Source: an uncultured Acidobacteriota bacterium (GTDB taxonomy: Bacteria; Acidobacteriota; Thermoanaerobaculia; UBA5066). From it: DNA of 64,000 bases. Shown one piece after another: positions 7,215 through 63,153 of the stretch; the stretch's first letter is position 1, and each line of letters starts with the position of its first letter. The notes under the pieces were generated by a model that worked only from the letters and a program-made list of their open reading frames with translations, did no database searches and was not told the DNA's origin. The DNA lies in the NCBI GenBank assembly GCA_963821435.1, contig CAWGDR010000004.1, positions 255,596 through 319,595 on the forward strand. The letters are read 5' to 3'. A program made the position numbers and the translations under genes.

Positions 7215-7261
7215 CGCGCCTCTCGTCTCCAAGCCCATCGTACCCTGCTAGCATTCCGTCG

Positions 7262-18187: not shown

Positions 18188-18203
18188 GGCGAAGGGGGCG
18201 ATG

Positions 18204-28367: not shown

Positions 28368-28448
28368 CGCCTCCCGCGCCCGCCCTGCCGCGGCCTCCCG
28401 TCGCGGCGACGGCGGGCGCCGTGTCGCGGGCGGTAAACTGCCCGCAGG

Positions 28449-30533: not shown

Positions 30534-31257
30534 CGTCCGGTCCGCCTCGCCCGCCTCTCGCCGCGCTTCGTCGCGGCCTGCGGCGGGAGGGCGGCCTCGA
30601 CGAGCCCCTCGACGATCCGCCCGCGGTCGAGCGTCAGGCAGCGGCGCGCCCGACTGGCGGACGAGGTCCTGGTCGTGCGTCGCGACGACCACCGTCGTCC
30701 CGCGGATGTTGATCTCGGCGATGAGCTTCATGACCTCGCCCGCGAGGCGGTGGTCGAGGTTGCCGGTCGGCTCGTCGGCGACGAGGAGCGTCGGATCGTG
30801 GACGAGGGCCCGCGCCAGCGCGACGCGCTGCTGCTCGCCTCCCGAGAGCTCCTCCGGGAGCGCGCCGAGCCGGTGGTGGAGCTCGACGAGCCGGAGCACC
30901 TGGTAGGCGCGCCGCCTCCGCTCGGCCGGCGGGACGCCGAGGAACTTCTGGACGTACGTGACGTTCTCGAGGACGGTCCGCGTCGGGAGGAGCTTGTAGT
31001 CCTGGAAGACGATGCCCGATCGACCGGCGAAGCGCCGGGACCCGCGAGACGCGGCATCGCCGAGACGTTCATGCCGTTCACGATGATCTGGCCGTCGTTC
31101 GGCCGCTCCGCGCGGAAGACGAGGCGCAGGAGCGTCGTCTTCCCCGCGCCCGAGGGCCCGGTCAGGAAGACGAACTCTCCCTTCTGCACCTGGAACGTGA
31201 CGTCCTTCAGGACGCGGCGCCCCTGGTACTCCTTGGCGACCCGGTAGAACTGGATCA
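30531..31257 (-). CDS. ftsE: cell-division ABC transporter ATP-binding protein FtsE; indels
   Basis: '[46 protein letters not shown]' carries Walker A, and '[32 protein letters not shown]' is the ABC signature. The GTG at 31257 overlaps the gatB stop. Confidence 0.75.
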
Positions 31258-32721
31258 CGAGGGCTTCTCGAGCGCTGCCTTCAGGAGCCGGTTCACGACG
31301 GCGGGGCTCGCCTTGCCGCCGGTCGCCTTCATCACCTGCCCGACGAACCACCCGAACGTCGCGGCCTTTCCGGCGCGGTAGGTCTCGACCTGCTGCGGGT
31401 TCGCGGCGAGGATCTTCCCGATCGCCTCGAGGATCGGCCCCTCGTCGACGATCTGGACGAGGCCGCGCTCCTTCACGACGGCGTCGGCCTCCTTCCCCGT
31501 CGCGATCATCTCCGGGAGGACCTCCTTCGCGATCTTCCCGGAGATCGTGCCGCCGTCGATGAGGGCGACGAGCCGCGCGAGGGCCGCGGGGGCGACCGGC
31601 ACGCGCCCGGCCTGCTTCTCGGCGTCGGTCATCCGGCCGAGGAGGTCCGAGAGGAGCCAGTTCGCGATCCCCTTCGGGTTCGCCGGGTGGGCCGCGACGG
31701 CCGCCTCGTACCAGTCGGCGAGCGGGCGCGAGAGGCAGACGAGGTCGGCGTCCGGCGGGCGGGAGCCCGAGCGACGATTCGAGCCGCTTCGCCCGCGCCT
31801 CCGGCAGCTCCGGGAGCGTCGCCGCGACCTCCCGGCGCCACGCGGCGTCGACGACGAGCGTCCCGAGGTCGGGCTCCGGGAAGTAGCGGTAGTCCATCGC
31901 CTCTTCCTTCCCGCGCATCGGCTTCGTCGCGCCCGCGCCCGGCGTCCCAGAGGCGCGTCTCCTGGACGACCGCCCCGCCGGCCGCAAGAACGGCCGCCTG
32001 CCGCCCGATCTCGTGCTCGAGCGCCTTCTTCACGTGGGCGATCGAGTTCAGGTTCTTGATCTCCACCTTCGTTCCGAGCGGCTCCGCGCCCGCCGGGCGG
32101 ACGGAGACGTTCGCGTCGCAGCGGAGAGAGCCCTCCTCCATGTTCCCGTCCGAGGCGTCGACCCACCGGACGAGCCGGCGGAGCTTCACGAGGTAGTCGT
32201 ACGCCTCGTCGGCCGAGCGGAGGTCGGGCTCCGAGACGATCTCGATGAGCGGCGTCCCGGCCCGGTTCAGGTCGACGAGCGAGGCGCCGGTCGGCACGTC
32301 GTCCCACGGAAACTCGTGCATCGACTTCCCGGCGTCCTCCTCGAGGTGGATCCGGTGGAGGCGGACGCGGCGCGCGGCGCTCCCCGCGAGGACGTCCACG
32401 AACCCGCCCGTCGCGAGCGGCCGGTCGTACTGCGAGATCTGGTAGCCCTTCGGCAGGTCCGGGTAGAAGTAGTTCTTCCGCGCGAAGACCGAGCGCTCCT
32501 GGATCGTCGCCGCCGGTCGCGAGGGCGACCCGCATGGCGAGCGTCACCATCTCGCGGTTCATGACCGGGAGGACCCCCGGGTAGCCGAGGCAGACCGGGC
32601 AGACCGCCGTGTTCGGCGCCGCGCCGAAAACGACCGGGCAGGGGCAGAACGCCTTGCTCTTCGTCCGGAGCTGGCAGTGGACCTCGAGCCCGATGACGGG
32701 CTCGAACGCGGCGGGCGGCAT
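31255..32721 (-). CDS. gatB: aspartyl/glutamyl-tRNA(Asn/Gln) amidotransferase subunit B; indels
   Basis: The N-terminal part is '[50 protein letters not shown]'. The middle part is '[13 protein letters not shown]...[14 protein letters not shown]' and the C-terminal part is the GatB/YqeY tail '...[33 protein letters not shown]'. The three parts lie in different frames. Confidence 0.8.
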
Positions 32722-32739
32722 CCGGGGAAGTCTAGCGAA

Positions 32740-34140: not shown

Positions 34141-34250
34141 GACCGGAGATCTTAAGATCGGAGCGGGCCGGCGCGACGCAGCGGAAAAAAAGCGGCCCAC
34201 TCGCCGCGCCCCCCGATAGAATCGTGACGCGGCCCGGCGAAGGAGTGACG

Positions 34251-42726: not shown

Positions 42727-42733
42727 GGCCCGG

Positions 42734-42752
42734 AGGATAAACTCCCGCCCCT
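42734..42752. promoter_or_regulatory. 26-nt divergent intergenic region with overlapping -10-like hexamers (plus TAAACT, minus TATCCT) 9 and 7 nt from the lepB and queF start codons; CCCGCCCC tract
   Basis: The plus strand reads GGA-TAAACT-CCCGCCCCT-ATG (lepB). The minus strand reads TATCCT-CCGGGCC-ATG (queF). No SD is present on either side, which suggests leaderless transcripts. Confidence 0.4.
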
Positions 42753-43457
42753 ATGCCGTTCTCCAAGGAAAAGCGTGCGGCCCTCCTCCGCGACCTCCGG
42801 CACCTCGTCCTCATGGCCGCGGTCATCCTGACCGGCCGTTCGGTCCTGGCCGACTGGTACGTCGTTCCGACCGGCTCCATGAAGCCGACGATCCTCGAAG
42901 GCGACCGGGTCTTCGTCTGGAAATCCGCCTACCAGATCCGCGTTCCGTTCTCGCGGGTCAAGCTCTTCTCGACCGGGGTGCCCCGGCGAGGCGACGTCGT
43001 GGTGGTCCGGAACCCCGACGGGGGGAGCATCCCGTTCGTGAAGCGCCTCATCGGGCTCCCCGGCGACGTCGTCGAGCTGCGGAACGAGACGCTCTACCTG
43101 AACGGCGCCGCGATGCCGGCCGACTTCCTCCCCGAGCGGAAGGCCGACGACGGCGAGACCCTCCTCCTCGGCACCGAGGACCTGATGGGGCGAAAGCACC
43201 CGATCCGGATCCTGCCGGACCGGCCCGCCTTCCGGACCTTCGGCCCGATCACGGTCCCGGAGGGGGAGATCTTCGTCATGGGGGACAATCGGGACGAGAG
43301 CCGCGACGCCCGCTTCTTCGGGACCCGGCCCGTCTCCGACCTCCTGGGGCGCGCCGTCGGCATCATGTGGAGCTGGAACAACGAATTCGCGAAGGGCCCC
43401 CGATGGAGTCGCTTCGGCCGGAAGTTCATCAGCGAGGCGAACGAGGTCAAACCCTAG
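42753..43457 (+). CDS. lepB: signal peptidase I
   Basis: The gene is intact. The N-terminus is a TM anchor. The catalytic Ser is in 'VVPTGSMKPTI', 'VKRLIGLPGD' is the box with the catalytic Lys, and 'VMGDNRDESRDARFFG' is also present. Confidence 0.85.
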   Translation: MPFSKEKRAALLRDLRHLVLMAAVILTGRSVLADWYVVPTGSMKPTILEGDRVFVWKSAYQIRVPFSRVKLFSTGVPRRGDVVVVRNPDGGSIPFVKRLIGLPGDVVELRNETLYLNGAAMPADFLPERKADDGETLLLGTEDLMGRKHPIRILPDRPAFRTFGPITVPEGEIFVMGDNRDESRDARFFGTRPVSDLLGRAVGIMWSWNNEFAKGPRWSRFGRKFISEANEVKP

Positions 43458-43506
43458 GCCGCCGCCGGCTTGCGCCGGCGCCTCTTTGGACTTAATCTAA
43501 GGTCGA

Positions 43507-43917
43507 ATGGAACCGCGCGTCCGGACCGAGGAACGGCTCCGCGAAAAAGGGCTCCGCGTCACGCAGCAGCGCGTGGCGGTGCTGAACTACCTCGGTTCCG
43601 TCCGGCACCACCCGACGGCCGAGGACGTCGGGGAGGCGGTGAACCGCCTCGTGCCGACGGCCCGCGCGTCGGTCTACAACGTCCTCCGGTCGCTCCGGGA
43701 AGCGGGCCTGATCGAGGAGCTCGTCTTCGACGACGCCGTCGTCCGCTACGACGCGAACCTCGAGAAACACCACCACTTCGTCTGCGCGGTCTGCGGCGGC
43801 GTGGCGGACGTGCCGTGGGACTCCCTGCCGCAGGCGCCGAAGCGGAGGCTCGCCGACGGGCGCACCGTGGACGACTGGAACGTGACGCTCCACGGCCGCT
43901 GCCCGGGTTGCCAGTAG
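43507..43917 (+). CDS. fur: Fur-family metalloregulator (Fur/Zur/PerR)
   Basis: The gene is intact at 136 aa. 'LRVTQQRVAVLNYL...HPTAEDV' is the winged helix. The metal ligands are 'HHHFVC..CG' and a C-terminal 'CPGC'. A TAATCT hexamer lies 8 nt upstream of the ATG. Confidence 0.85.
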   Translation: MEPRVRTEERLREKGLRVTQQRVAVLNYLGSVRHHPTAEDVGEAVNRLVPTARASVYNVLRSLREAGLIEELVFDDAVVRYDANLEKHHHFVCAVCGGVADVPWDSLPQAPKRRLADGRTVDDWNVTLHGRCPGCQ

Positions 43918-52095: not shown

Positions 52096-53017
52096 TCAGT
52101 TCTTGATGGCGTCGCCCGCCTTGAAGCCGGAGCCCGAGACGACCTTCGCCGTGGAGAGCCGGGGCCCCATGACCTTTTCGACGCGCAGCCGGCCGACCTT
52201 CGTCTCGTTCTGGCCGAGGACCTCGCCCGAGTCCGGATCCTTGATCGGGGCGCCCAGCCGCATGACGTTGAACTCCTCACCTTCCTTCACGCCGGCCTCG
52301 GAGCCGACGTTCAGGTAGATCTCCCCGCCGTCGACGCGGGCGATCTTCCCCGCCACCCCCGAGGAGTCGCCCGAGCCGCCCGCGCCGCTCGAGGAGAGCG
52401 ACTTCTGGGCGAGCGAGTCCGCGAGCTTCGTGACGACGGGCCGGACCAGATGGTCCAGCTTCCGCTGGTCGTCGACGCCGCCGCCGGCACCCGCCACGTA
52501 GACGCTCGAGCTGGAGGACTCCTCCTTGGCGGAGTCGGCCCAGACGATCTCACCCGTCGTCGTCGAGAAGGCGCGCGCGTCGATGGCGCAGTCCATCTTC
52601 GAGACGCCGACGTTGACGCTCGGGATCCCGCGGATCCACGGCGTGTTGACGTTCGTCTTCTGCGCGCCGAGCTCGGTCAAGGCGCCGGCGATGAGGTACT
52701 CGACGCCGAGGAGCTTCCCGATCTTCATCGCCGTCTTCGGGTCGACGTCGCCGGAGAGCGTCAGGTGCTTCTCCTGCATGATCGCGTTCAGCTGCTCGCG
52801 CTCGATGACGCGGTACTTCCCGGTCTTGACGAGCGCGGTCACGAACATGTCCTGGGCCTGGGTGCCGGCCTGGTACCAGTTCCAGCTCCAGCCCGAGACC
52901 TTGTTCTTGAACTCGATGACCGCCACGCGCGGCTTGGCCTGGGCGAAGGCCGGGCCCGCGGCCGCGAGCGGCCAGGGCGCCCGAAACGAGGAAACCGGCA
53001 ATCCGGGTCGCTCTCAT
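52096..53017 (-). CDS. CsgG/HfaB-family lipoprotein with about 100-aa C-terminal beta-rich extension; one indel after the signal peptide
   Basis: An SD GGGAGGAG precedes the start. The signal sequence is 'MRATRIAGFLVS...LAAAGPAFA'. The CsgG-like core reads 'RVAVIEFKNKVSGWSWNWYQAGTQAQDMFVTALVKTGKYRVIEREQL...AMKIGKLLGVEYLIAGALTELG'. Confidence 0.65.
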
Positions 53018-53062
53018 GTCTTTCTCCTCCCTGTGGTGTTTCGAGACGCACATTCTAGACGC

Positions 53063-53075
53063 TTAGACTCGGCCC
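53063..53075 (+). promoter_or_regulatory. conserved motif TTAGACTCGGCCC abutting the GTG start of the Smr gene (member of the TTAGACTCCGCCCC motif family)
   Basis: TAGACT (TANNNT) lies 6 nt upstream of the GTG at 53076 and there is no SD. The divergent csgG-like promoter (TAGAAT on the minus strand) shares the TCTAGA palindrome at 53055-53060. Confidence 0.4.
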
Positions 53076-53405
53076 GTGGGAGAGAGCCGCGACGGACCGC
53101 CCGACGCGCCCGGGGCGCCCCCGTCCCCCGTCGAGATCCCGATCGAGGATGCCCTCGACCTCCACCCGTTCCGGCCCGGCGAGACCGCCGCCGTCGTCAC
53201 CGACTACGTGGAGGCCGCCGCGGCGCGCGGCTTCTCCGAGGTCCGGCTCGTCCACGGCCGGGGCGCCGGCGTCCAGCGCCGCATCGTCCGGGGGGCTCTC
53301 GCCCGCTCGCCTTTCGTCGTCTCGTTCGCCGACGCGACGCCCGACCGGGGAGGCTGGGGCGCGACCGTGGCGGTCCTGCGGAACCGCGGAAACGCTCCGC
53401 GTTGA
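53076..53405 (+). CDS. Smr (MutS2 C-terminal-like) domain protein
   Basis: 'DLHPFRPGETAAVVTDYVEAAAARGFSEVRLVHGRGAGVQRRIVRGALARSPFVVSF...GGWGATVAVL' matches the Smr pattern 'DLHG...v.iIHGkG.g.Lr..v...L...p.V..f.......GG.GaT.V.L'. Confidence 0.6.
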   Translation: MGESRDGPPDAPGAPPSPVEIPIEDALDLHPFRPGETAAVVTDYVEAAAARGFSEVRLVHGRGAGVQRRIVRGALARSPFVVSFADATPDRGGWGATVAVLRNRGNAPR

Positions 53406-53420
53406 CGCGTGTCGGGTGAA

Positions 53421-53434
53421 TTAGACTCCGCCCC
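53421..53434 (+). promoter_or_regulatory. conserved motif TTAGACTCCGCCCC immediately upstream of the FabH-like GTG start
   Basis: TAGACT lies 7 nt upstream of the GTG at 53435. A TTGACG -35-like hexamer lies 14 nt further upstream. There is no SD. Confidence 0.4.
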
Positions 53435-54529
53435 GTGAAAAATCTGACGCCCGCGCCGGGGAACCGGATCATGGCCATCCGTGGCTCCGGCTTGCATGTC
53501 CCGCCCCAGGTCGTCACGAACGAGATGATGTCCCGGATCATGGAGACCTCGGACGACTGGATCGTCCCGAGGACCGGGATCCGCGAGCGGCACTTCGCTC
53601 CGCCGGGCGTCGGCTCGGCAGGCCTCGGCGTGAAGGCCGCCGAGGCGGCCCTCGCCGACGCGGGGCTGACGGCGTCCGACATCGACTTCGTCGTCTTCGC
53701 CACCATGACGCCCGACCTCTACTTTCCCGGCAACGGCGGCCTCCTGGCGCGGGACCTCGGGATGAAGACGACGCACGCTCTCGACATCCGGATGCAGTGC
53801 GCGGGATTCCTGTCGGGCCTTCAGACCGCCGACGCCTTCATCCGCTCGGGGATGTACGACCGGATCCTCCTCGTCGGCGCCGAGGTCCACAGCGGCCTGA
53901 TGCCGTGGCCGGAGTCGGTCTGGGACGTGATGCTCGGAAAGTCCCCGGGACCCTGCGACCCCGACTGGTACCGGAAGGTGACGAGCTTGCGCGACCGGGC
54001 GGTCCTCTTCGGGGACGGGGCCGGGGCGTTCGTCCTCGAGGCGAACGAGTCGGGGGACGGGCGCGGGTTTCTCTCCTTCGCGATGTACACGGACGGCGCG
54101 CACTGGGACAAGCTCCACGTCCCGGGCGTCGGCTGCCGGTTCCGTCCCTACGTCACGCACGAGATGGTGGAGCGGCTCGACTCGGTGCCGATCGTCGAGG
54201 GGCGGCAGGTCTTCCGCCTCGCCGTGCAGCTGATGCCGGCCGCCGTGATGGAGGTCCTCGGGGCGAACGGGAAAACGCTCGACGACCTCGACCTCCTCCT
54301 GATGCACCAGGCGAACCTGCGGATCAACGAGGCGGCGCAGAAGGCGCTCGGGCTGCCCGACGGGAAGGTCTTCAACAACATCGAGAAGTACGGCAACACG
54401 ACGGCCGCGACGCTCCCGATGGCCTTCCACGAGGCGAAGCTCGCGGGCCGGGCGAAGGCCGGCGACCTCGTTGCGTTCACCGCCCTCGGCGCGGGCCTCC
54501 ATTGGGGCGCGGCGCTCGCGCGCGTCTAG
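53435..54529 (+). CDS. 3-oxoacyl-ACP synthase III-like (FabH/KAS III family)
   Basis: The gene is intact at 364 aa. 'WIVPRTGIRERHFA' is present. The catalytic Cys is in 'MQCAGFLSGL', the His in 'LLLMHQANLRI' and the Asn in 'NIEKYGNTTAATLP'. The gene also has unusual N-terminal and internal insertions. Confidence 0.8.
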   Translation: MKNLTPAPGNRIMAIRGSGLHVPPQVVTNEMMSRIMETSDDWIVPRTGIRERHFAPPGVGSAGLGVKAAEAALADAGLTASDIDFVVFATMTPDLYFPGNGGLLARDLGMKTTHALDIRMQCAGFLSGLQTADAFIRSGMYDRILLVGAEVHSGLMPWPESVWDVMLGKSPGPCDPDWYRKVTSLRDRAVLFGDGAGAFVLEANESGDGRGFLSFAMYTDGAHWDKLHVPGVGCRFRPYVTHEMVERLDSVPIVEGRQVFRLAVQLMPAAVMEVLGANGKTLDDLDLLLMHQANLRINEAAQKALGLPDGKVFNNIEKYGNTTAATLPMAFHEAKLAGRAKAGDLVAFTALGAGLHWGAALARV

Positions 54530-55995
54530 CCGGCGGGCTTCTCCCGGAGCTTCGCGACCGCCTCGGCCGGCCCGGCGAGGAGAGCGGCGCGGCGGCGGGC
54601 CCGGTCGGCCAGTTCCGGGCTCGTCCCGGGAACTCCCGCGCGGACCTCCAGCGCCTCCGCCGAGCGGGCGAGCGCAGCCGTCACCTCCAGCGCGAACGGC
54701 TCTCCCGCCTCGCTCTCGAGGCCTTTCCGGTCCGCGAGGCGGACGACCCCCGCGAGGCCGTGGATGAGGACCGGAAGCAGGGCTGGATCGCGGTCGAGGT
54801 CGAGGAGCAGGCGGCCGATCACCCGCTCGACGGGGTGCCAGAGGACGCGCGTGAAGGCGCCGTCGTCCTTCTCGACATCCTCCCTCATCCACGAAACGAG
54901 CGCCGCGGCCCACGGCCCGACGCTCGCCGCCTCGGCCCCCGCCGCGGTGACGATGCGGGCCAGCGGGCGCATCGCGCGGTCCGCGGCGCCGTCGAAGAGG
55001 CCCGCCCGGGCCACGTCCCTCATCGCGCCGACGAAGGAACGGGCGGCGTTCCCGACGAACTGCTCCATCCCCTTCTCCCGGCCCGCGAGGAGGAGGCCGC
55101 ACCAGCCGTCGAAGTAGGCGAAGGCGACCGACGGGGACCCACGCCGGACGACCGGCACGCGCAGCTCGGCGAACCAAGGCGTCACGAGGAGCTGGTAGAT
55201 CCGGTCGTGGGACTCGTCCGCGAGCTCGGCGAGCCGGCGGGCCACGAGCGACACCGACGACGTGACGACGGAGGCGGGGCTCTGCCCGACGACGGTCTCG
55301 AGGACGTCGTGGACGGTGACGAGCGGGTCGTCGGCCTCGCCCGGCGCCATCCGGAAGGCGAAGATGAGGTCGTTCAGCGTGTCGGCGCGGCCCCGCTCCG
55401 TCGCGTCGACGCCGAGGAGCCGCCGCTCCCGCGCGTCGAGGTACGGGCCATCCACCTGCGAAAGCGCCGCGCCGAGGAGCCGCTCCTGCGTCAGGAGGGT
55501 CGGGATCGTCCGGAAGAGACGGACGAGGGCGACGATGACCGCGCCGAACTGCAGGTAGCCGCCGAACGAAAGGAGGAAGACCGTCCCCTCGCTGTGCGAG
55601 ACCCGGGGCAGGTGCGAGAGAAGGAGCGCGAGGCAGCAGGCGAGGATCGTCACGATGGCGCCCGTCTGCGCGAGGCGGAAGTCGGGGTCCTTGAGGACGA
55701 TCGCGCCGAGGTGCGAGCGCTGGACCGACGTCCCGAGCGTCATCGAGAGGATCAGGACCGAGCCGGCCACCGCCATGATGCCGGCCAGGACCGAGGCCAT
55801 CGTGCCCAGGAGGTAGGTGAACGGCACCATGTCCTCGGACGGGACGGGGTTGGGGGCCGGCGATGCAAACGCCGAGAGCACCGACGCGGCCTGGAGGACG
55901 AGTCCGACCGCGAGGATCGCGAGCAGGACCCCGCGCGTCCGGGCGTCGGCCGCGGCCTTCAGGCTCCGGGCCTCCCGATCCGCCGCCGTGCTCAT
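54526..55995 (-). CDS. hypothetical membrane protein (about 6 N-terminal TM helices + about 270-aa cytoplasmic domain), unknown function
   Basis: The gene is intact at 489 aa. Its start overlaps the stop of the upstream ATP-grasp-like gene. Its TAG stop shares a CTAG palindrome with the convergent fabH-like stop. No family recognised. Confidence 0.45.
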   Translation of the reverse strand: MSTAADREARSLKAAADARTRGVLLAILAVGLVLQAASVLSAFASPAPNPVPSEDMVPFTYLLGTMASVLAGIMAVAGSVLILSMTLGTSVQRSHLGAIVLKDPDFRLAQTGAIVTILACCLALLLSHLPRVSHSEGTVFLLSFGGYLQFGAVIVALVRLFRTIPTLLTQERLLGAALSQVDGPYLDARERRLLGVDATERGRADTLNDLIFAFRMAPGEADDPLVTVHDVLETVVGQSPASVVTSSVSLVARRLAELADESHDRIYQLLVTPWFAELRVPVVRRGSPSVAFAYFDGWCGLLLAGREKGMEQFVGNAARSFVGAMRDVARAGLFDGAADRAMRPLARIVTAAGAEAASVGPWAAALVSWMREDVEKDDGAFTRVLWHPVERVIGRLLLDLDRDPALLPVLIHGLAGVVRLADRKGLESEAGEPFALEVTAALARSAEALEVRAGVPGTSPELADRARRRAALLAGPAEAVAKLREKPAG

Positions 55996-57209
55996 CGGCC
56001 CGGCCGGATCGCGACCGACGACCCGACCCAGGTGAAGTCCTTGTTGAAGTCGACGCCGAGCATCTTTCCGCGGGAGAGCCGGCAGAGGTTGAGCCCCAGG
56101 GTCAGCCCGTTTTCCCCCTCGGGCCGGTAGAACATCATCCGGATCTCCACCTTCACCCCCCCGCCGTCGGCCGCCGCGAGGCAGGGAGCGTACGAGATCT
56201 TCTCCTGCAGGCACCACGCGGCGCGCTCGGAGGCGGGGATCCTCTCCACGTCGGCGCGCGTCGGCTCCACGTTGACGCCCCCGCCCGCGAACGAAAAAAG
56301 CGGCTTCAGGACGTACCGCTCCCGGAGGTCGGCCGGGAGCTCCGCGAGGTCGGCGAGCGACGTCGCCTTCGGCACCGCGGGGTGGGAGAGGAGCGGGATC
56401 GACGCCTTCGACCAGGTCCAGTACCAGTTCGGGTGCGGGACCCACGTGACGTCGAGCGGCTCCCGGTAGTCGAACGGCAGCGCGACGTTCTCCTTGATCA
56501 GCTCGTCGAAGACGACCCGGTTGTAGATCCGCTCGACCGGCACCTTCCGCCCGTCCTTCGTCCGGAAGAGCCTCCGTCCTTCCTTCACGAGGTCTCGCGG
56601 GTCGACCGCGTCGACGCCGAGCAGCTTCTTCGTCGCGGCGAAGTCGACGTGGGTCTTCTGCTTCGCCGGATGGAGGTCGACGAGCACGACGCGCTCCGGT
56701 TCGTGGCGGCCGACGATCGTCCGGCGGAAGAGGTCGAGGAAGCGCTCGCGGGTGAGGCCCGAGAAGTAGGGGCTCCACGGCCCCTCCGGGAGGCCGGGAA
56801 TCCCCTCAAGGCACTCGCTCCAGACGTCGGACTGCAGCACCTCGAACGCGGAGAGGGACGGGAAGCCCTGCAGCTCGATGAGACGCGGGACGAGGCGGCC
56901 CGACGGGTCCTCGACGACCGCGAGGTCGACCTGCGCCACCTCGGGGAGCGCCTCCATGCCGGGTGCGTGCCACGCCGCCGGGATGTGCGCGCGCATCGCC
57001 GCCGCCTTCGCCGGGTCCGAAAGCTCGGCGACGATCTCCACCGCCGTCGCGACGAGCTGCCGCTCGAGGTCTTCCGTCAGGAAGACCGGCGTCTCCGCGA
57101 GACGGAAGCCCGCCGCCGCGCCGGCGCGCGCGGCGAGCGCTTGCGCCTGGCGGCGGTAGAGATCGTCGGTGAAGGCCGCGTTGAAGGCGCGGCGGTATCC
57201 GGCATGCAC
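55992..57209 (-). CDS. putative circularly permuted ATP-grasp (glutathionylspermidine-synthase-like) family protein
   Basis: The gene is intact at 405 aa. 'RYVLKPLFSFAGGGVNVEPTRADVE' resembles the CP-ATP-grasp nucleotide-binding loop. The GTG start is preceded by the motif TTAGACTCCGCCCCCA. The assignment is tentative. Confidence 0.4.
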   Translation of the reverse strand: MHAGYRRAFNAAFTDDLYRRQAQALAARAGAAAGFRLAETPVFLTEDLERQLVATAVEIVAELSDPAKAAAMRAHIPAAWHAPGMEALPEVAQVDLAVVEDPSGRLVPRLIELQGFPSLSAFEVLQSDVWSECLEGIPGLPEGPWSPYFSGLTRERFLDLFRRTIVGRHEPERVVLVDLHPAKQKTHVDFAATKKLLGVDAVDPRDLVKEGRRLFRTKDGRKVPVERIYNRVVFDELIKENVALPFDYREPLDVTWVPHPNWYWTWSKASIPLLSHPAVPKATSLADLAELPADLRERYVLKPLFSFAGGGVNVEPTRADVERIPASERAAWCLQEKISYAPCLAAADGGGVKVEIRMMFYRPEGENGLTLGLNLCRLSRGKMLGVDFNKDFTWVGSSVAIRPGR

Positions 57210-57233
57210 TGGGGGCGGAGTCTAACCTCCGCC
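57210..57233 (-). promoter_or_regulatory. conserved motif TTAGACTCCGCCCCCA embedded in a perfect palindrome GGCGGAG-GTTAGAC-TCCGCC, 9 nt upstream of the ATP-grasp GTG
   Basis: The minus strand reads GGCGGAGGTTAGACTCCGCCCCCAGTG. There is no SD. Confidence 0.4.
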
Positions 57234-57314
57234 GTCGCCGGTCCGGGCCCAGGAAGCGCGACACTCCGGCACGCTCCGCTGACGCGGCGCGCCGTTCCGG
57301 CTTAAGCTCACGAC

Positions 57315-57809
57315 ATGGCGACCGTTCCGAAACCCCTCGTCGGCGTCGTGATGGGCAGCCGTTCCGACTGGGAGACGATGAAGTTCACGGACGAGGTGCT
57401 GACCCGCTTCGGCGTTCCGCACGAATGCCGCGTCCTTTCGGCCCACCGCAGCCCGAAACTGACGTCCGCGTACGCCCTGGCCGCCGAGAAGCGCGGCCTC
57501 GCGGTGATCATCGCGGCCGCCGGCGGCGCCGCCCACCTGGCCGGCGTCCTCGCGGCCCACACCGTCATTCCCGTTCTCGGGGTTCCGATGGAGAGCGCGT
57601 CGCTGAAGGGCCTCGACTCGCTCTTGTCGACGGTGCAAATGCCGGGCGGAGTCCCCGTCGGGACCCTCGGAATCGGGAAGCCCGGCGCCACGAATGCCGC
57701 GCTCCTCGCCGTCGCGATCCTCGCAGCGGGCGACGCCTCCCTCAAGATGAAGCTCCGGAGGTTCCGTGCCGACCAGGAGAAGGCGGTCCGGACCCAGACC
57801 CTCCCCTGA
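57315..57809 (+). CDS. purE: 5-(carboxyamino)imidazole ribonucleotide mutase
   Basis: The gene is intact at 164 aa. 'VGVVMGSRSDWETM' and 'VIIAAAGGAAHLAGVLAAHTVIPVLGVP' are diagnostic. Confidence 0.9.
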   Translation: MATVPKPLVGVVMGSRSDWETMKFTDEVLTRFGVPHECRVLSAHRSPKLTSAYALAAEKRGLAVIIAAAGGAAHLAGVLAAHTVIPVLGVPMESASLKGLDSLLSTVQMPGGVPVGTLGIGKPGATNAALLAVAILAAGDASLKMKLRRFRADQEKAVRTQTLP

Positions 57810-57830
57810 GCGGGTCGAAAGGACCGCCCC

Positions 57831-58353
57831 ATGAGAAAGCCCGTTCCGCTCGCCGTCCTCGCCCTTCTCGCCCTCGCCGCCGCCGCCGACGCCGGTGGCA
57901 TTCCCGAGGCGCTGAAGCCCGACGACGTGCCGAACTACCACCGCGTCTCCCCGCAGCTCGCCACCGCGGGCCAGCCTTCGCCCGAGTTCCTGAAGAAGGC
58001 GAAGGAGCTCGGCTTCGCCACGGCCGTGAACATCCGGATGCCGAGAGGAGGGGATCGAGGCCGACCGGAAGATCCTCGAGGGGCTCGGCATCCGCTTCGT
58101 CAGCGTCCCGGTGACGCCCGGTTCCTTCAGCCTCGCCGACGCGAAGGCCGTGGCCGCCGTCCTCGACGACCCTAAGGCCGGGCCGGTCCTCTTCTACTGC
58201 AGCTCCTCGAACCGGGTCGGGGGCGTCTGGGCCGTCGTCCAGGCGCTCCACGGAAAGAGCGACGAGGAGGCGCTGGCCGAGGGGAAGAAGGCCGGGCTGA
58301 AGAGCCCGGCCATGATCGACGCCACGCAGCGGGTCCTCCGGGAGGCCCGCTGA
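57831..58353 (+). CDS. secreted DUF442-like (beta-lactamase-hydrolase-like / sulfur-transferase-associated phosphatase fold) protein; indel near 58040
   Basis: The signal peptide is 'MRKPVPLAVLALLALAAAADA'. 'YHRVSPQLATAGQPSPEFLKKAKELGFATAVNIR' is followed, after a shift, by '...VLFYCSSSNRVGGVWAVVQALHG', a CX5R-like 'CSSSNR' motif. Confidence 0.5.
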
Positions 58354-58357
58354 CCCT

Positions 58358-59779
58358 TCAGGCGGCGAGGGCGTCGACGACCCGTTCCAGCCTCATCCCC
58401 CGGCTCCCCTTGACGAGCACGACGTCGCCGGCACGGAGACGGGGGCGCAGCCAGCCGAGAAGGGGCTCGATCTCGAGAAAATGCGCGGCCTCGGTCCGGC
58501 CGCCCTTTGCCGCCTCGAACGCGGCCGCGGAGCGGGGGCCGAAGAAGGCGAGGAGCTCCGCCGATTCCGCCGCCCGCTCGCCGAGCGCGCGGTGCTCGGC
58601 CTCCTCGCCGGTCCCGAGCTCCAGCATGTCGCCGAGAACGGCCACCGCACGCCCCCGGCCCGCGACGGAGCGAAGCATCCGGAGCGCGGCCTCCATCGAC
58701 GACGGGTTCGCGTTATAGCAGTCGTCGAGAAGAATCAGCCCGGACGCGGTCTCCACGATCCGGGACCGGTGGGAGTAAGGCCGTGCCGCCGAGAGTCCGG
58801 CGGCGATTTCTTCGAACGAACAGGAAAGCGAAAGGGCCAGCGCCGCCGCGGCGGTCGCATTCATCGCATTGTGCTCACCGACGAACGCAAGCCGGACGTC
58901 GACCCTGCTCCGCTGTAGGTTCCGACCGGGAAGCGAGCGGCCTGTCCTGCCTTCCCCCTCTTCCCCTTCTAAGCAGATTTCCTGCCCTTCCGATCCAAGA
59001 GGCGTGACCCGAAGCAAACGGACATCAGCCTCCGCACTCTTACCAAAAGAAATCGTCCGAACCCCGGTCGCGATCCGCGCCGCCTGCGCCACGCAGCGCG
59101 GGTCGTCGGCGTTCACGACGGCCACCGCCCCGGGCCGGAGCCCGGCGTAGAGCTCCCCCTCGGCCGCCGCGACGCCGTCGAGGTCCTTCAGGAACTCCAG
59201 GTGCTCCGCCGCGACGAGCGTCACGACGCCCGCGTCCGGCCGTGCCATCGCCGTCAGCCGCGCGAGCTCGCCCGGGCCCGACGTCCCGAGCTCGACGACG
59301 GCGGCGCGGTGCTCCCCGGCGAGGCGGAGGAGAGTCAGCGGGACCCCGATCTCGTTGTTCAGGTTCCCCTCGGTCGCGAGCGCCGGGCCCCGGGTCCGGA
59401 GGATCGCCGCGACCATTTCCTTCACCGTCGTCTTGCCGTTCGAGCCGGCTACGGCGCCGAGGGGGATCGAGAACCGGCCGCGGTGGAACCGCGCGAGCGC
59501 GCCGAGCGCCGCGAGGGTGTCGTCCACCTCCACGAGCGCGCCGCCGTCCGGCGCGACGGCGCCCCGCCGGACGACCGCCCCGGCCGCCCCCTTCGCGAAC
59601 GCGTCGCCGAGGAAGTCGTGCGCGTCGAACCGGTCTCCCCGGAGCGCCACGAATAGGGCGCCCGGCGTCACCGTCCTTGTGTCGGTCGAGACGCCGTCGA
59701 AGGTGGGACGCGCCCCCGCCCGGGCGAGCCGGCCTCCCGTCGCCTCGAGGACCTCCCGCTCGGAGAACCGCGCCGTCAC
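58358..59779 (-). CDS. murF: UDP-N-acetylmuramoyl-tripeptide--D-alanyl-D-alanine ligase
   Basis: The gene is intact at 473 aa. The P-loop is 'GSNGKTTVKEM', and 'DDCYNANPSSM' is also present. The typical dcw-cluster neighbours (murE, mraY) are absent. The gene contains an atypical low-GC insertion (see findings). Confidence 0.85.
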   Translation of the reverse strand: MTARFSEREVLEATGGRLARAGARPTFDGVSTDTRTVTPGALFVALRGDRFDAHDFLGDAFAKGAAGAVVRRGAVAPDGGALVEVDDTLAALGALARFHRGRFSIPLGAVAGSNGKTTVKEMVAAILRTRGPALATEGNLNNEIGVPLTLLRLAGEHRAAVVELGTSGPGELARLTAMARPDAGVVTLVAAEHLEFLKDLDGVAAAEGELYAGLRPGAVAVVNADDPRCVAQAARIATGVRTISFGKSAEADVRLLRVTPLGSEGQEICLEGEEGEGRTGRSLPGRNLQRSRVDVRLAFVGEHNAMNATAAAALALSLSCSFEEIAAGLSAARPYSHRSRIVETASGLILLDDCYNANPSSMEAALRMLRSVAGRGRAVAVLGDMLELGTGEEAEHRALGERAAESAELLAFFGPRSAAAFEAAKGGRTEAAHFLEIEPLLGWLRPRLRAGDVVLVKGSRGMRLERVVDALAA

Positions 59780-59795
59780 GCCGCCCCCTTCCGCC

Positions 59796-61439
59796 TCATT
59801 CTCCCCGAGCCGCGGCCGTCGCGTCCGCGACGGGCCCGGCGCACGGGAGGCCGATCTCCGATCCCTTCGGAAGGTCCGGGAGGGGCGAGGCCGCGGCCGA
59901 CGCGGAGGCGAGGCGGGCCGCGTCGGAGAGGTCGAAGAGCGTGAGCGTCAGCTCCGCCCCGGGGATCCCGCCGGGGGGCTCGAGCGAAAGGCTCTCCCGC
60001 TCGGTCCCGATCGTTCGGAGGTAGCCGAGGACGACCTCCCGTTCCCGGAAGGCCGGGAGGGCGTGTGTCACGAGGATCCAGACGCGCGGGCTTCCACGGA
60101 AGGCGTCGAGCTCCCGGAGGACCTTCCGCGGTTCGTCGCGGCCGCAGGCGCCGAAGACGACCTCGCCGGGGGGGAGCTCGGCGAGGCCGAAGAGCGGGGC
60201 GTAAAAGCGGAAGGCGGGCGCGGCCCCGTAGAAGACGTAAACCGGGTCTCCCGGGCGCCGCCGCTCGCGGAGCCTCTCCAGCGCCGGGCGGACCGGCTCC
60301 GGACCGTACGGAGGGGGCTGCGCCCGGAGCGCGAGGAGCGGCGCCGCCGAGGCGAGGGCGACGAACGCCCAGCCCGCCGGGGGCGCGAGCCCCGCGAGGA
60401 GGCCGCGGATCGCCTCGACGGCGGCCGCGACGAAGAAGAGGAGCGCGGGGACGAGGAACGCCGTGAGCCGCCCCGGCGCCCACGGGTAGAGCTTCAACGC
60501 GGACGCCGCGAGGACGACGCCGACCGGGAGACCCAGCATCAGGGCGGCGTCGGGGCGCTTCCGGGAAAGCACGGCCGCGCCGGCGACGCAGAGGCACGCG
60601 AACGCCGGGGCGGCGGGGAAGAAGAGGAAGCCCGGGCCGAAGAGGTGCTCCAGGTGCCCCCACGCCCAGCGGAGCGGCTCGAGCCCCCTCGGGGGCCACG
60701 GCATGAAGCCGAGCGCCCAGTAGGAGCGGACGTAAGCCCGCCCTTCGGCGGTCATGAGGCGGAGGTTCGAGACGAGGGCGAACGCCGCCCCGGCGCCCCA
60801 GAAGGCGAGCGTGACGGCGAGCGGGAGGAGCGCGGCCCGGTCCCGCCTCCGGAGTGCGATAAAGGTGGCCGCCCCGAAGAGGCCCGCGAGCGTGAGGACG
60901 ACCGACTGCGACAGGAGGGCGAGCGCCAGCCCCGCGGCGCCGAGCCGCGCCGCCCGCTGAAGCGTCAGCCCCGCGGCGAGCGCCCGGGAGGCGAGAAGCG
61001 TGACGAGGAGCGTCGCCGCGATCTCCGTGGCGTACTGCTTCAGGTGCCCCGAGTAATAGACGAAGCCGGGGCTCAGCGCGAACGCCCCGACCGCGAACGG
61101 GACCGCGGCCCCCGTCAGCAGCCGCTCCGCGAGCTGCCGGACGAGGAAGCAGGAGGCGATCGAGGCCGCGAGCGGCAGAAGGCGCAGTCCGAGGTCGCTC
61201 CGTCCGAAAAGGTGGAAGAGCCCCCGCTCGAGGACGAGGAAACCCCAGGGCGCGATCTGCCCCCCCACCAGCGGCGAGAGGTAGGTCGAGACCGGCCGCT
61301 CGACGATCGTCAGGGCGACCGCCGCCTCGTCCAGCGTGAGCGACGGGCGCGCGAGGAAGTTCAGGAGCCGGAGCGCCACCCCCGCCCCGACGAGGAGGCC
61401 GAGGAGGGTCCGCGTCGCCGCGTCAGCCCTTCGGGACAA
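59796..61439 (-). CDS. large polytopic membrane protein, glycosyltransferase family 39 / ArnT-PMT-like (tentative), second copy
   Basis: The gene is intact at 547 aa with about 11 TM helices. Its topology is similar to the gene at 35628-37361. The C-terminal soluble domain reads '...PVYVFYGAAPAFRFYAPLFGLAELPPGEVVFGACGRDEP'. It overlaps the upstream ATP-grasp gene by 17 nt. Confidence 0.5.
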   Translation of the reverse strand: MSRRADAATRTLLGLLVGAGVALRLLNFLARPSLTLDEAAVALTIVERPVSTYLSPLVGGQIAPWGFLVLERGLFHLFGRSDLGLRLLPLAASIASCFLVRQLAERLLTGAAVPFAVGAFALSPGFVYYSGHLKQYATEIAATLLVTLLASRALAAGLTLQRAARLGAAGLALALLSQSVVLTLAGLFGAATFIALRRRDRAALLPLAVTLAFWGAGAAFALVSNLRLMTAEGRAYVRSYWALGFMPWPPRGLEPLRWAWGHLEHLFGPGFLFFPAAPAFACLCVAGAAVLSRKRPDAALMLGLPVGVVLAASALKLYPWAPGRLTAFLVPALLFFVAAAVEAIRGLLAGLAPPAGWAFVALASAAPLLALRAQPPPYGPEPVRPALERLRERRRPGDPVYVFYGAAPAFRFYAPLFGLAELPPGEVVFGACGRDEPRKVLRELDAFRGSPRVWILVTHALPAFREREVVLGYLRTIGTERESLSLEPPGGIPGAELTLTLFDLSDAARLASASAAASPLPDLPKGSEIGLPCAGPVADATAAARGE

Positions 61440-62382
61440 GGCCCGCTGCCCGCGGCCACGAGCCGGTCGGCTCGAACGGCCGCGGGCTCCGCGCGCGCTC
61501 CATCAGGAGCTCGGCCATCGCCCGGACGATCCAGTCGAAGTTCTCCTTGCCGACCGAGTGGAGGTCCGCGTCCGGCGCGGCGTTCATGAAGTCGATCGCG
61601 TACGGGACGCCGTCCCGCACCGCGAACTCCGCCGTGTTCAGGTCGTAGCCGAGGGCGTCACAGAGCGCGAGCGCGTCGCGCGTGACTCGCTCGACCAGCG
61701 CGGCCGGCATCGCCTTTCCCTTCGCGGCGGCGTAGCGGAGGTGGTGCGGCTCCTTCGGCGCGTACGGCATGATCCGGACCCGCTTCCGCCCCACGACGTA
61801 GCAGCGGTAGTAGTCGGTGAAGTCGATGGCTTCCTGCGCCATCATCGTCAGGTCGCGGGTCTTGTCGTACGCCGCGAAGAGCGCCTCGCGGTCGTCGCAC
61901 TTGTAGACATCCTTCCAGCCGCCGCCGTAGGCCGGCTTCAGGAAGATCGGGAAGCCGAGGTAGGCGAAGACGGCGTCCCAGTCGACGTACGTCAGGTTCC
62001 GGAACGACGTCGACTCGGTGCCGGGCGGGTGCTCCTTGTGGGGCAGGAGGACCGTCCGCGGCACCGCGACGTTCAGGCTCAGCGCGACGACGTTGTTGAA
62101 GAACTTGTCGTCCGCCGCGCCCCACATCGGGTTGTTGACGACCTGCGTCCCCCGGGCGATCGCGCACTTCAGCCAGGTCCGGTAGTAAGGGACCTCGTGG
62201 CTGATCCGGTCCAGGATCACCGCGTACTCGGCCGGGGCGTCCTGGCGGATGGCCCCGATCCGGACCGGCTCGGCCGCGACCGCCTCCCCGCCCGCCGCCG
62301 CGAGGCGGTTGATCTCCTCCACGAGCGCCCACGGGAAGGTGTTCTCCATGCCGAACAGGACGCCGATCTTCTTCAGGGCCAT
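61423..62382 (-). CDS. ATP-grasp domain protein (RimK/GshB-like fold; function unknown)
   Basis: The gene is intact at 319 aa. 'FPIFLKPAYGGGWKDVYKC' is the Gly-rich ATP-grasp loop, and the motif order matches the classical (non-permuted) ATP-grasp. Confidence 0.5.
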   Translation of the reverse strand: MALKKIGVLFGMENTFPWALVEEINRLAAAGGEAVAAEPVRIGAIRQDAPAEYAVILDRISHEVPYYRTWLKCAIARGTQVVNNPMWGAADDKFFNNVVALSLNVAVPRTVLLPHKEHPPGTESTSFRNLTYVDWDAVFAYLGFPIFLKPAYGGGWKDVYKCDDREALFAAYDKTRDLTMMAQEAIDFTDYYRCYVVGRKRVRIMPYAPKEPHHLRYAAAKGKAMPAALVERVTRDALALCDALGYDLNTAEFAVRDGVPYAIDFMNAAPDADLHSVGKENFDWIVRAMAELLMERARSPRPFEPTGSWPRAAGLVPKG

Positions 62383-62434
62383 CTCGGGCGACTCCGTTTC
62401 TTCCGGGTTCCGCGGATCCTAGCAGGGGGTCGGC

Positions 62435-62448
62435 TAGACTCCGCCGCG
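62435..62448 (+). promoter_or_regulatory. conserved motif CTAGACTCCGCCGCG immediately upstream of the esterase ATG
   Basis: TAGACT lies 8 nt upstream of the ATG at 62449. There is no SD. Confidence 0.4.
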
Positions 62449-63153
62449 ATGCTGCGGAGCTACGGAGCGTGGGAGAGCCCCTCTCTCGGCCGTCGGATGG
62501 AGTACCTATGGTTCGGGGAGCGCGGGCGGCCGCTCCTTCTCTTCCCGACCTCGATGGGGCGCTTTTACCAGAACGAGGACTTCGGCCTCGTCGGCGCCCT
62601 CGCCGACAAGGTGGACGCCGGCTTCCTCCAGCTGATCTGCGTCGACTCGGTCGACGCCGAGAGCTGGTACGACACCCGGGCTCACCCCCGCGACCGCGCC
62701 CGCCGGCACGACCAGTACGACCGATACCTCAGGGACGAGATGTTCCCGCTGATCGTCCAAAGGACCGGGGGCAACATCGCGGTCGGCGGCGCCTCCTTCG
62801 GCGCCTACCACGCGGCGAACGTCGCGGGGCGCTACCCGGGGCTCGTCACGAAGGCCCTCTGCTTCTCCGGCCTCTACCACATGGGGCGCTACCTCGACGG
62901 GTACTGGGACGAGACCTGCTACTTCCACTCCCCGGCGGCCTACATCCCGAACATGGACGAGGGGTGGTGCGGCCGGCTCCGAAACGTGGAGTGGGTCGTC
63001 GCGACGGGCGAGAACGACTCGCTCATCGCCGAGAACCGGGGCCTCGCGGAGATCCTTTCCCGGAAGGGGATCGGCTGCCACGCCGAGTTCTGGCCGGGCG
63101 TCTTCGGGCACGACTGGCCGTTCTGGAACGAGGCGGTGAAGCGGCTGATCTAG
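62449..63153 (+). CDS. esterase-family alpha/beta hydrolase (putative esterase / S-formylglutathione-hydrolase-like)
   Basis: The gene is intact at 234 aa. The nucleophile elbow is 'IAVGGASFGAY', and 'WPGVFGHDW' is also present. Confidence 0.6.
   Translation: MLRSYGAWESPSLGRRMEYLWFGERGRPLLLFPTSMGRFYQNEDFGLVGALADKVDAGFLQLICVDSVDAESWYDTRAHPRDRARRHDQYDRYLRDEMFPLIVQRTGGNIAVGGASFGAYHAANVAGRYPGLVTKALCFSGLYHMGRYLDGYWDETCYFHSPAAYIPNMDEGWCGRLRNVEWVVATGENDSLIAENRGLAEILSRKGIGCHAEFWPGVFGHDWPFWNEAVKRLI

Follow-up and report, generated by a model that had tools for sequence, protein, structure and literature searches.

The 64,000-nucleotide stretch of DNA analysed here (the window) comes from a bacterium of the class Thermoanaerobaculia (Acidobacteriota), a little-studied class. 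It raises the question of why a short sequence, TAGACTC(C/G)GCC, recurs 6–9 nt ahead of the start codons of four genes, which encode an Smr protein, a FabH-like protein, a protein of 405 amino acids (aa) and an esterase. The initial annotation offered two readings of this motif: the −10 element of leaderless mRNAs, abutting the start codon, or an alternative-sigma element or operator that would define a small regulon. Here, these readings are weighed together with a chance resemblance and a translation signal acting at the RNA level.

Sequences and gene calls

The window was compared with 47 related loci of the same class (800 kb altogether). All of the compared loci are syntenic with one region, so that they represent few gene families and their orthologs are not independent. 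Genes were called by a codon log-odds model; some genes had no clean starts after this calling, for which frameshifts in the assembly are a partial cause. The assembly contains indel errors, and the lengths of spacers with C-homopolymers may therefore be off by one. Motif-independent start calls were obtained for 537 genes by the longest-ORF rule. Metagenome contigs were searched with the pattern TAGACTCCGCCN{0,4}ATG in place of the degenerate TAGACTCCGCCSSS; this pattern presupposes the ATG, and the other two reading frames served as the control.

Sites in the window

The four sites and a relative of the motif ahead of lepB were all present as initially annotated (Table 1), but the sequence that follows TAGACTC varies between sites, so that the term 'strictly conserved' overstates their likeness. 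Each of the five TAGACT copies in the window lies ahead of a start codon, at spacings of 6, 7, 7, 8 and 9 nt. The copy ahead of gatB was absent from the initial list. Generic hexamers that had been reported ahead of a supposed TPR gene (the 662-aa gene), fur and queF were also found, with spacings of 7, 8 and 7 nt, respectively.

The spacers of the Smr, FabH-like, 405-aa and esterase genes are C-rich, and their 6–9 nt leave no room for a Shine-Dalgarno (SD) sequence, as the initial annotation had recognized; the sole GGAGG near the start of the 405-aa gene ends 16 nt before the GTG. The overlapping hexamers of queF and lepB share an intergenic gap of only 26 nt, in which neither a leader nor an SD sequence can fit on either side. 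The assignment of the 405-aa product to the ATP-grasp proteins could not be established, as it has no Pfam match and its sole NCBIfam match is the uncharacterised PRK06849 (0.008).

Two divergently oriented, SD-led genes have likely −10 hexamers close to these sites. The TAGAAT of the CsgG gene is arranged back-to-back with the Smr −10 and is kept as ATTCTAGAC or ATTCTAA in loci L001–L004 and L061, and the GATCCTAGCAGG upstream of the RimK-like gene is kept in L001–L003.

Table 1. Predicted promoter cores and likely −10 hexamers in the window
Feature	Position	Strand	Hexamer	Discriminator or spacer	Start codon	Product match
Smr promoter core (predicted)	53064..53078	+	TAGACT 53064–53069	CGGCCC	GTG 53076	Pfam PF01713 (1.3e-17)
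FabH-like promoter core (predicted)	53422..53437	+	TAGACT 53422–53427	CCGCCCC	GTG 53435	NCBIfam PRK09352 (319 bits)
405-aa gene promoter core (predicted)	57207..57224	−	TAGACT 57224..57219	CCGCCCCCA	GTG 57209	See text
Esterase promoter core (predicted)	62435..62451	+	TAGACT 62435–62440	CCGCCGCG	ATG 62449	Pfam Esterase (9e-8)
gatB promoter core (predicted)	32719..32734	−	TAGACT 32734..32729	TCCCCGG, 7 nt	ATG 32721	GatB (3.8e-70)
queF/lepB divergent overlapping hexamers (predicted −10s)	42734..42755	both	queF, TATCCT 42739..42734 (−); lepB, TAAACT 42738–42743 (+)	queF, 7 nt; lepB, CCCGCCCCT, 9 nt	queF, ATG 42726; lepB, ATG 42753	lepB, signal peptidase I, TIGR02227 (1e-39)
purE promoter core (predicted; generic class member)	57303..57317	+	TAAGCT	6 nt	ATG 57315	
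Fur-family gene promoter core (predicted)	43493..43509	+	TAATCT	8 nt	ATG 43507	
662-aa gene promoter core (predicted)	7249..7264	+	TAGCAT	7 nt	ATG 7262	Weak family matches only
Likely −10 of divergent SD-led CsgG gene	53052..53057	−	TAGAAT	SD GGGAGGAG	ATG 53017	
Likely −10 of divergent SD-led RimK-like gene	62416..62421	−	TAGGAT		ATG 62382	

The initial annotation had considered the recurrence of the motif very unlikely by chance. This held for the exact 11-mer, TAGACTCCGCC, of which the window contains three copies where composition predicts 0.03; none of 100 shuffles reached three. It did not hold for TAGACT alone, which is not over-represented (5 versus 3.9 expected), and when one mismatch is allowed in the 11-mer, the observed count (4 versus 1.7 expected) was reached by 9 of 100 shuffles. 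The latter two figures are what would be expected if the sites resembled one another by chance or belonged to a short, functionless repeat of the dispersed (REP- or MITE-like) type. A search for repeats, however, yielded only GC-rich chance families, none of which covered the sites, and the flanks of the sites are dissimilar. Furthermore, the copies in the window are all position-locked to starts, and the positional peak and the conservation in orthologs described below contradict this explanation, which we regard as extremely unlikely.

Position of the hexamer relative to gene starts

Enrichment of the motif near starts, a check proposed with the initial annotation, was evident across the 800 kb. 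Among 88 copies of TAGACT, 69 are located 6–12 nt before a good ORF start (58 at 6–9 nt and 11 more at 12 nt, all at high-scoring starts), and the median for 180 permutations of the hexamer was 2% at such positions. The signal extends beyond this one hexamer: with the motif-independent starts, TANNNT forms a peak at 6–9 nt that comprises 119 of the 537 genes, with 41, 28, 28 and 22 genes at 6, 7, 8 and 9 nt, respectively, compared with approximately 2 per position elsewhere. Thus, approximately 22% of the called genes carry the signal.

In total, 31 unrelated families, including purE, ychF, fur, queF, lepB, gatB and a kinase, have TANNNT 5–10 nt before the start, and each keeps its own conserved hexamer. 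The family-weighted matrix gives the consensus (G)nTA[G/T][A/C][C/A]T with a C-rich tract downstream; G occupies −14 in 63%, and each of the first four bases 3′ of the hexamer is C in 48–60%. The matrix shows no information content between −40 and −3, has no −35 element, and its −10 is TANNNT. A scan for two-hexamer sigma-70 promoters between 52800 and 62600 returned none, a result that is compatible with promoters lacking a −35 element and is uninformative by itself. The GCGTTGAC/GCGTTAAC upstream of the FabH-like gene was considered as a candidate −35 and ruled out, both on its spacing of 13–14 nt and on its overlap with the 3′ terminus of the Smr gene, stop codon included. In the genes that carry the signal, codons 2–6 are rich in A (fraction of 0.22–0.32, versus ~0.12 later) and have a GC3 of 0.68, versus 0.9.

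Conservation in orthologous loci

Comparison of orthologous upstream regions, which had likewise been suggested as a check, revealed that the position of the hexamer is kept. In 34 orthologous loci, TAGACT or TACACT precedes the GTG of the FabH-like gene by 6–9 nt and is followed by the conserved A-rich GTGAAAAATCTGAC; the hexamer and spacing are retained, and the flanking bases are changeable. In one clade, the FabH spacing is 12 nt, which suggests a short leader, a few nucleotides long. The Smr orthologs have TAGACT, TACACT or TATTCT 6–9 nt before the start, and the 405-aa orthologs open with ATGCATCC at the same position, 6–9 nt (mostly 8 nt) after TAGACT, TAAACT or TACACT. For the esterase, an identical TAGACTCCGCCGCC-ATG layout is found in L001–L003. 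The purE orthologs use TAAGCT, TAGGAT, TACGAT or TAAGGT. This conservation reaches down to ~73% protein identity. Across the window sites and their orthologs, T1, A2 and T6 of the hexamer are invariant, and positions 3–5 vary (TAGACT, TACACT, TAAACT, TATTCT).

These invariant positions bear on the possibility that the motif is a non-SD translation initiation signal that is read in the RNA, within longer transcripts such as one on which FabH is co-transcribed with Smr. The FabH hexamer lies within the 29-nt gap 3′ of the Smr stop codon (TGA 53403–53405), so that read-through transcripts would include it, and the lack of an SD sequence is also in line with such a signal. However, the bases that never change are exactly those that are fixed in a −10 hexamer (T1, A2 and T6), with the middle ones free to vary, and the spacing fits the distance from a −10 to a transcription start site. 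In addition, in eight loci, an outer-membrane gene led by AAGGAG has TAGACT, preceded by TGc, approximately 100 nt upstream, where the hexamer appears to act as an extended −10 promoter element rather than as a translation signal. No Rfam or tRNA matches were detected in the window, L029 or L043, which indicates that such TAGACT sites away from starts are not known RNA genes. We know of no complementarity-based rationale for the pyrimidine-rich UAGACUCCGCC, which further weakens an RNA-level role. Taken together, a translation signal of this type is very unlikely.

A possible common regulatory factor for the four genes

The regulon proposed in the initial annotation would require a dedicated factor, namely a repressor or activator covering the −10 and discriminator, a factor sensing the discriminator or an alternative sigma factor, that targets TA[G/A]ACTCCGC[C/G] and co-regulates the FabH-like, 405-aa, esterase and Smr genes. 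Several observations are in its favour, including the excess of the exact 11-mer in the window. CCGC directly follows the hexamer at 49% of the sites in the four families, compared with 7% in the other 27 (approximately seven-fold), an excess that a generic-consensus model accounts for only partly. The FabH-like and 405-aa genes are conserved neighbours in essentially all of the related loci. Finally, as the initial annotation had noted, the 405-aa site lies inside a genuine 7 + 7 palindrome (GGCGGAG-TCTAAC-CTCCGCC on the + strand, 57214–57233).

The palindrome, however, is present at the 405-aa site alone and is retained in only L001 and L003, and the sites otherwise lack operator symmetry; the conserved core of 6–7 bp is asymmetric, unlike typical operators, and nothing is conserved in common upstream of the hexamer. 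An alternative sigma factor of the ECF type would be expected to recognize a −35 element at a fixed spacing and a −10 other than TANNNT, and the weighted matrix contains neither. Moreover, both the hexamer and the discriminator drift independently in each of the four families and in each lineage: FabH stays TAGACT, and divergent forms include TACACTgt.. or TATTCTaggacg for Smr and TAAACTccgcgccc or TAGACTgcgccgcg for the 405-aa gene.

The gene set is also not coherent. TAGACT precedes gatB and the SD-led outer-membrane gene, lepB has a close variant, and the generic consensus of the 31 families is already near the motif. Among metagenome contigs with a GC content of 62% or more, 35 of the 48 matches to TAGACTCCGCC-N0-4-ATG open an ORF that is 100 codons or longer, and 27 of these 35 have a GC3 of at least 0.8, versus 0 in the other two frames. 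The genes behind the exact 11-mer include those for homoserine dehydrogenase (hom) and chorismate synthase (aroC), asd, ugd, meaB and a thiolase gene. Nine of the metagenome proteins were tested and are unrelated housekeeping enzymes, with Pfam domains starting at residues 1–13 in six and 24–82 in three. We therefore consider a dedicated factor for the four genes improbable. There is a similarly slim chance of a narrower version, in which, within the subclade formed by the window, L001–L004 and L061, the four promoters converged on or were held at TAGACTCCGC by a discriminator-reading factor that co-regulates an uncharacterised lipid-related module. Such a reader may be a regulator whose site overlaps the −10, or a sensor that responds to GC-rich discriminators in the manner of the stringent response.

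Probable core promoters of leaderless genes

The repeated TAGACTCCGCC is most probably the core of ordinary promoters, a −10 plus a GC-rich spacer, of leaderless genes, presumably served by the housekeeping sigma factor. TAGACT would serve as the −10 hexamer, with T−12, A−11 and T−7 as the invariant contacts, and the C-rich 6–9 nt that follow would form the discriminator. Transcription would start at, or a few nucleotides from, the A or G of the ATG or GTG, and the mRNA would have neither a 5′ UTR nor an SD sequence, with ribosomes presumably initiating at the 5′-terminal start codon. The four sites would resemble one another because each is near the lineage consensus for this promoter class, and because selection has maintained each inherited promoter in the family of genes to which it belongs. 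We infer the leaderless status from the geometry and conservation of the hexamer. The statistics on hexamer position, the conservation among orthologs and the metagenome matches thus support this part of the initial annotation, and they likewise support its suggestion that the organism mixes leaderless and SD-led genes.

These results have a practical use, as TANNNT at 6–9 nt can help to correct gene starts in metagenome-assembled genomes (MAGs) of Thermoanaerobaculia, for which gene finders tuned to SD sequences will misplace such starts. In the window, the starts of the FabH-like gene (GTG 53435), the 405-aa gene (GTG 57209) and the esterase gene (ATG 62449, versus 62469 in the mechanical ORF list) were confirmed in this manner. 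Approximately one-fifth of the genes are apparently leaderless in this uncultured and environmentally common class. The findings extend an architecture established in Deinococcus and Actinobacteria to another phylum and involve no new mechanism.

Comparison with known systems

The closest counterpart is the '−10 motif adjacent to ORFs' of Deinococcus-Thermus (de Groot 2014, PMC4007540; Zhong 2025, PMC12340547), which shares TANNNT directly before ATG or GTG without an SD sequence, invariant T1, A2 and T6, conservation among orthologs, no pathway bias and coexistence with SD-led genes. In D. radiodurans, the hexamer lies 6–7 bp before the ORF and is most often TACACT, and transcription rises after it (PMC12340547). 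TACACT is one base from TAGACT and occurs here upstream of orthologs of Smr and FabH. The two systems differ in phylum (Acidobacteriota here) and in spacing, which is 6–9 nt here versus ~6–7 nt there; the 8–9 nt spacings of the esterase, 405-aa and lepB sites exceed the 6–7 nt typical of Deinococcus, which counts against the leaderless reading. The signal is found in ~22% of the called genes here, compared with approximately one-third to 60% in Deinococcus, where the architecture was demonstrated experimentally, whereas the start site and promoter activity are predicted here from sequence.

The same signal, with the distance counted from the first T, defines the 'TA-led' leaderless genes of Zheng et al. 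2011 (PMC3160421), who predicted TANNNT ~10–12 bp upstream of the start in all three Acidobacteria surveyed, in 9.7–19.4% of genes (mean 13%). In their high-GC groups, the middle positions of the hexamer are poor in information, whereas some information is present here (C/A as the fifth base, and C downstream of the hexamer). That survey is older than the Thermoanaerobaculia genomes, and our analysis adds conservation among orthologs. The leaderless promoters of Actinobacteria (Mycobacterium and Streptomyces; PMC3898074) are alike in occurring in high-GC genomes, in their TANNNT −10 and in a −35 that is weak or missing, and leaderless ATG and GTG starts account for a large minority of genes there, as they appear to do here. 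They belong to a different lineage, and the preference for a C-rich, not G-rich, non-template discriminator seen here may be a further difference.

Motif sites in the window

Sequence inspection placed the four TAGACT copies and the related TAAACT of lepB, the signal peptidase I gene, exactly where the initial annotation had located them. A further copy, absent from its list, lies ahead of gatB; this is the fifth TAGACT, and therefore every TAGACT in the 64 kb precedes a start codon. The hexamer is not over-represented (five copies versus 3.9 expected); the 11-mer TAGACTCCGCC occurs three times versus 0.03 expected, and the recurrence of the motif is real and non-random. The label 'ATP-grasp' for the 405-aa gene is not established, because Pfam gave no hit for it and NCBIfam no more than a 0.008 match to the uncharacterised model PRK06849. 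The palindrome around the -10 of this gene is present in the related loci L001 and L003 and absent from more distant relatives.

The assembly contains indel errors, as seen in three frame shifts in gatB and in a CsgG-like gene whose 5' end is one base longer than in L001, and C-homopolymer spacer lengths may therefore be off by one. Matches to the GatB model are confined to the two ends of gatB, and its frame changes point to assembly indel errors or a pseudogene. The extra C in the CsgG-like gene, a probable 1-nt assembly error, puts the Shine-Dalgarno (SD)-preceded ATG out of frame with the gene body. Three stretches with little or no coding signal by a codon-score gene caller, in which Rfam and tRNA scans were negative, may represent frameshifted genes or atypical sequence.

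Motif sites and other features in the window and in related loci
Feature	Position	Strand	Details
Smr gene	TAGACT 53064-53069; GTG 53076	+	CGGCCC between; Smr Pfam 1.3e-17
KAS III/FabH-like gene	TAGACT 53422-53427; GTG 53435	+	CCGCCCC between; family match
405-aa gene	TAGACT 57224..57219; GTG 57209	-	CCGCCCCCA between; encodes 405 aa
Esterase gene	TAGACT 62435-62440; ATG 62449	+	CCGCCGCG between
lepB	TAAACT 42738-42743; ATG 42753	+	CCCGCCCCT between
gatB site	TAGACT 32734..32729	-	7 nt ahead of gatB ATG
gatB	31255-32721	-	best coding frame switches near 32550, 31980, 31800
Palindrome	57214-57233		GGCGGAG-TCTAAC-CTCCGCC
Divergent promoter pair	53052-53069	-/+	TAGAAT (-) 6 nt from TAGACT (+)
Divergent promoter pair	62416-62440	-/+	TAGGAT (-) 13 nt from TAGACT (+)
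queF/lepB gap	42727-42752	-/+	queF ATG 42726 (-)
Fur-family gene, upstream	43480-43506		TTGGACTTAATCTAA
CsgG-like gene, extra C	~52986 within 52940-53017	-	GAGCGGCC against GAG-GGCC in L001; SD-preceded ATG 53017
Low-coding stretches	15900-18200; 26800-29000; 32740-34200		
FabH-like cluster	53435-57209		FabH-like gene, 492-aa and 405-aa proteins
543-aa ORF segment	59790-61412	-	~1.6 kb
Outer-membrane gene leader	L043 16300-16440	-	~95 nt 5' UTR
Tandem array	L044 ~16160-16199		TTAGGGC/TTAGAGGGC

Conservation among orthologous loci

A search of species-representative genomes with the FabH-like protein as query gave 66 loci. Of these, the closest ~47, from MAGs labelled Thermoanaerobaculia, Acidobacteriota or Holophagales (73-95% protein identity, 67-72% GC), formed with the window an 800-kb comparison set of the same class. 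The related loci all correspond by synteny to a single region of the genome, with small family counts and with orthologs that are not independent of each other. In the FabH-like orthologs, the GTG is preceded at 6-9 nt by TAGACT (30 loci) or TACACT (4 loci); in one clade, TAGACT lies 12 nt from an ATG. Hexamer and spacing are thus retained, while the bases before the hexamer vary and the discriminators differ (CCGCCGC, CGGCCGC, CGCCCGC, CCGTCG and GCCCCTC). This conservation, together with the lack of similarity in the flanks of the sites, excludes chance or a dispersed repeat as the origin of the motif. The FabH-like gene opens with GTGAAAAATCTGAC, codons whose nucleotide sequence is itself conserved and whose A content is unusually high for a genome of 70% GC.

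The initial annotation had also proposed that the motif marks a dedicated regulon or an alternative sigma factor. If the four families shared an operator, they should have retained it in concert, but their hexamers diverge separately. Only in the subclade of the window (the window, L001-L004 and L061) is TAGACT present in all four; outside it, Smr has TACACTgt.. or TATTCTaggacg and the 405-aa gene TAAACTccgcgccc or TAGACTgcgccgcg, and in this comparison the FabH hexamer is TAGACT throughout. This proposal nevertheless keeps a small probability, because CCGC directly follows the hexamer at 49% of the sites in the four families versus 7% in the 27 other families described below, and because the FabH-like and 405-aa genes are neighbours in nearly all related Thermoanaerobaculia loci (L001-L047).

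The 492-aa and 405-aa proteins of the FabH-like cluster match no Pfam family, and FabH-like homologs occur in Bacteroidota at ~43% identity. The 543-aa ORF segment is missing from the otherwise collinear L001 (88.6% DNA identity).

Generality of the arrangement

The 800 kb contain 88 copies of TAGACT. High-scoring ORF starts follow 58 of them at a distance of 6-9 nt and 11 more at 12 nt, whereas the median fraction at ORF starts for all 180 permutations of the hexamer is 2%. TANNNT stands 5-10 nt ahead of the start in 31 unrelated gene families, with the hexamer conserved family by family (purE, TAAGCT or TAGGAT; ychF, TACTCT; fur, TAATCT; queF, TATCCT; lepB, TAAACT; a kinase, TATCCT). When each start was assigned as that of the longest ORF, without reference to the motif, TANNNT peaked at 6-9 nt (119 of 537 calls, versus ~2 per position elsewhere), and a control pattern gave no such peak in the same test. 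In codons 2-6 of these genes, GC3 is lower and A more frequent than further downstream, which is the pattern expected of 5'-terminal initiation regions. The family-weighted matrix has G at -14 (63%), then T, A, G/T, A/C, C/A and T, followed by C at 60, 58, 50 and 48%, and holds no information in the -35 region. Therefore, TAGACTCCGCC is near the consensus of the whole promoter class, which, like the generality of TANNNT, argues against a dedicated regulon.

The same holds for metagenomes, searched with TAGACTCCGCC-N0-4-ATG, a pattern that presupposes the ATG. On contigs of at least 62% GC, 35 of the 48 matches have an ORF of 100 codons or more starting at this ATG; GC3 is at least 0.8 in 27 of these ORFs and in none of the other two frames. 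Matches on lower-GC contigs behave as chance. Nine of the proteins are, by Pfam, unrelated housekeeping enzymes (homoserine dehydrogenase, chorismate synthase, carboxyltransferase, UDP-glucose dehydrogenase, MeaB, enoyl-CoA hydratase, thiolase, P-type ATPase and aspartate-semialdehyde dehydrogenase), with the domain starting at residues 1-13 in six and 24-82 in three.

TAGACT also appears to be active away from start codons. Eight loci have retained TTGCCG-N16-TAGACT, including a TGc extended -10, at ~100 nt before the AAGGAG-N6-ATG of a signal-peptide protein, and in the window the SD-led CsgG and RimK-like genes have TAGAAT and TAGGAT at the corresponding upstream position. Thus, TAG..T hexamers appear to be the ordinary -10 of the lineage, and their presence before SD-led genes is a further point against an alternative sigma factor. 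It likewise contradicts a translation signal acting at the RNA level, as do the invariant positions, which follow a -10-type pattern.

The eight loci with TTGCCG-N16-TGcTAGACT are L043, L029, L030, L031, L034, L040, L041 and L045. There this promoter is highly conserved; the leader between it and the outer-membrane protein gene has no Rfam match, and the conservation of that leader suggests a structured regulatory RNA. The two back-to-back divergent pairs, each joining an SD-led and a predicted leaderless gene, are conserved in L001-L003. Between queF and lepB, the starts are separated by 26 nt and the -10-like hexamers TATCCT and TAAACT share two bases, which leaves too little space for a leader on either gene. 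Upstream of the Fur-family gene, a sequence conserved in seven orthologous loci overlaps the -10 and may be an autoregulatory Fur box. The tandem array in L044 ends in TAGACT with no gene start adjoining.

Proposed leaderless promoters and known systems

The comparative evidence, which shows the geometry, conservation and generality of the motif and the lack of a -35 element, supports its leaderless -10 interpretation and not its reading as a regulon or alternative-sigma signal. As to sigma factor, transcription start and mode of translation, we infer that a housekeeping-sigma holoenzyme would recognise TAGACT as the -10 without a -35, helped at times by the -14 G, melt the C-rich discriminator and initiate at or beside the purine of the ATG or GTG, yielding a leaderless mRNA translated from its 5'-terminal start codon.

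TANNNT ~10-12 bp upstream of starts has been interpreted as marking leaderless promoters across bacteria, and this signal was predicted in three of three Acidobacteria, for a mean of 13.3% of genes (PMC3160421). In Deinococcus, 47-60% of mRNAs lack a leader and start with AUG or GUG (PMC4007540). The Deinococcus '-10-motif', most commonly TACACT, lies 6-7 bp ahead of ORFs, its T1, A2 and T6 are conserved among orthologs, and transcription rises after it (PMC12340547). Read from sequence alone, our sites agree with that class in every sequence-level feature; they differ in that they come from another phylum, are spaced more broadly (6-9 nt) and visibly favour C, both at hexamer position 5 and within the discriminator. 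Judged in this way, the motif is most likely an ordinary example of a known leaderless-promoter architecture, in a class for which it had not been specifically documented before.
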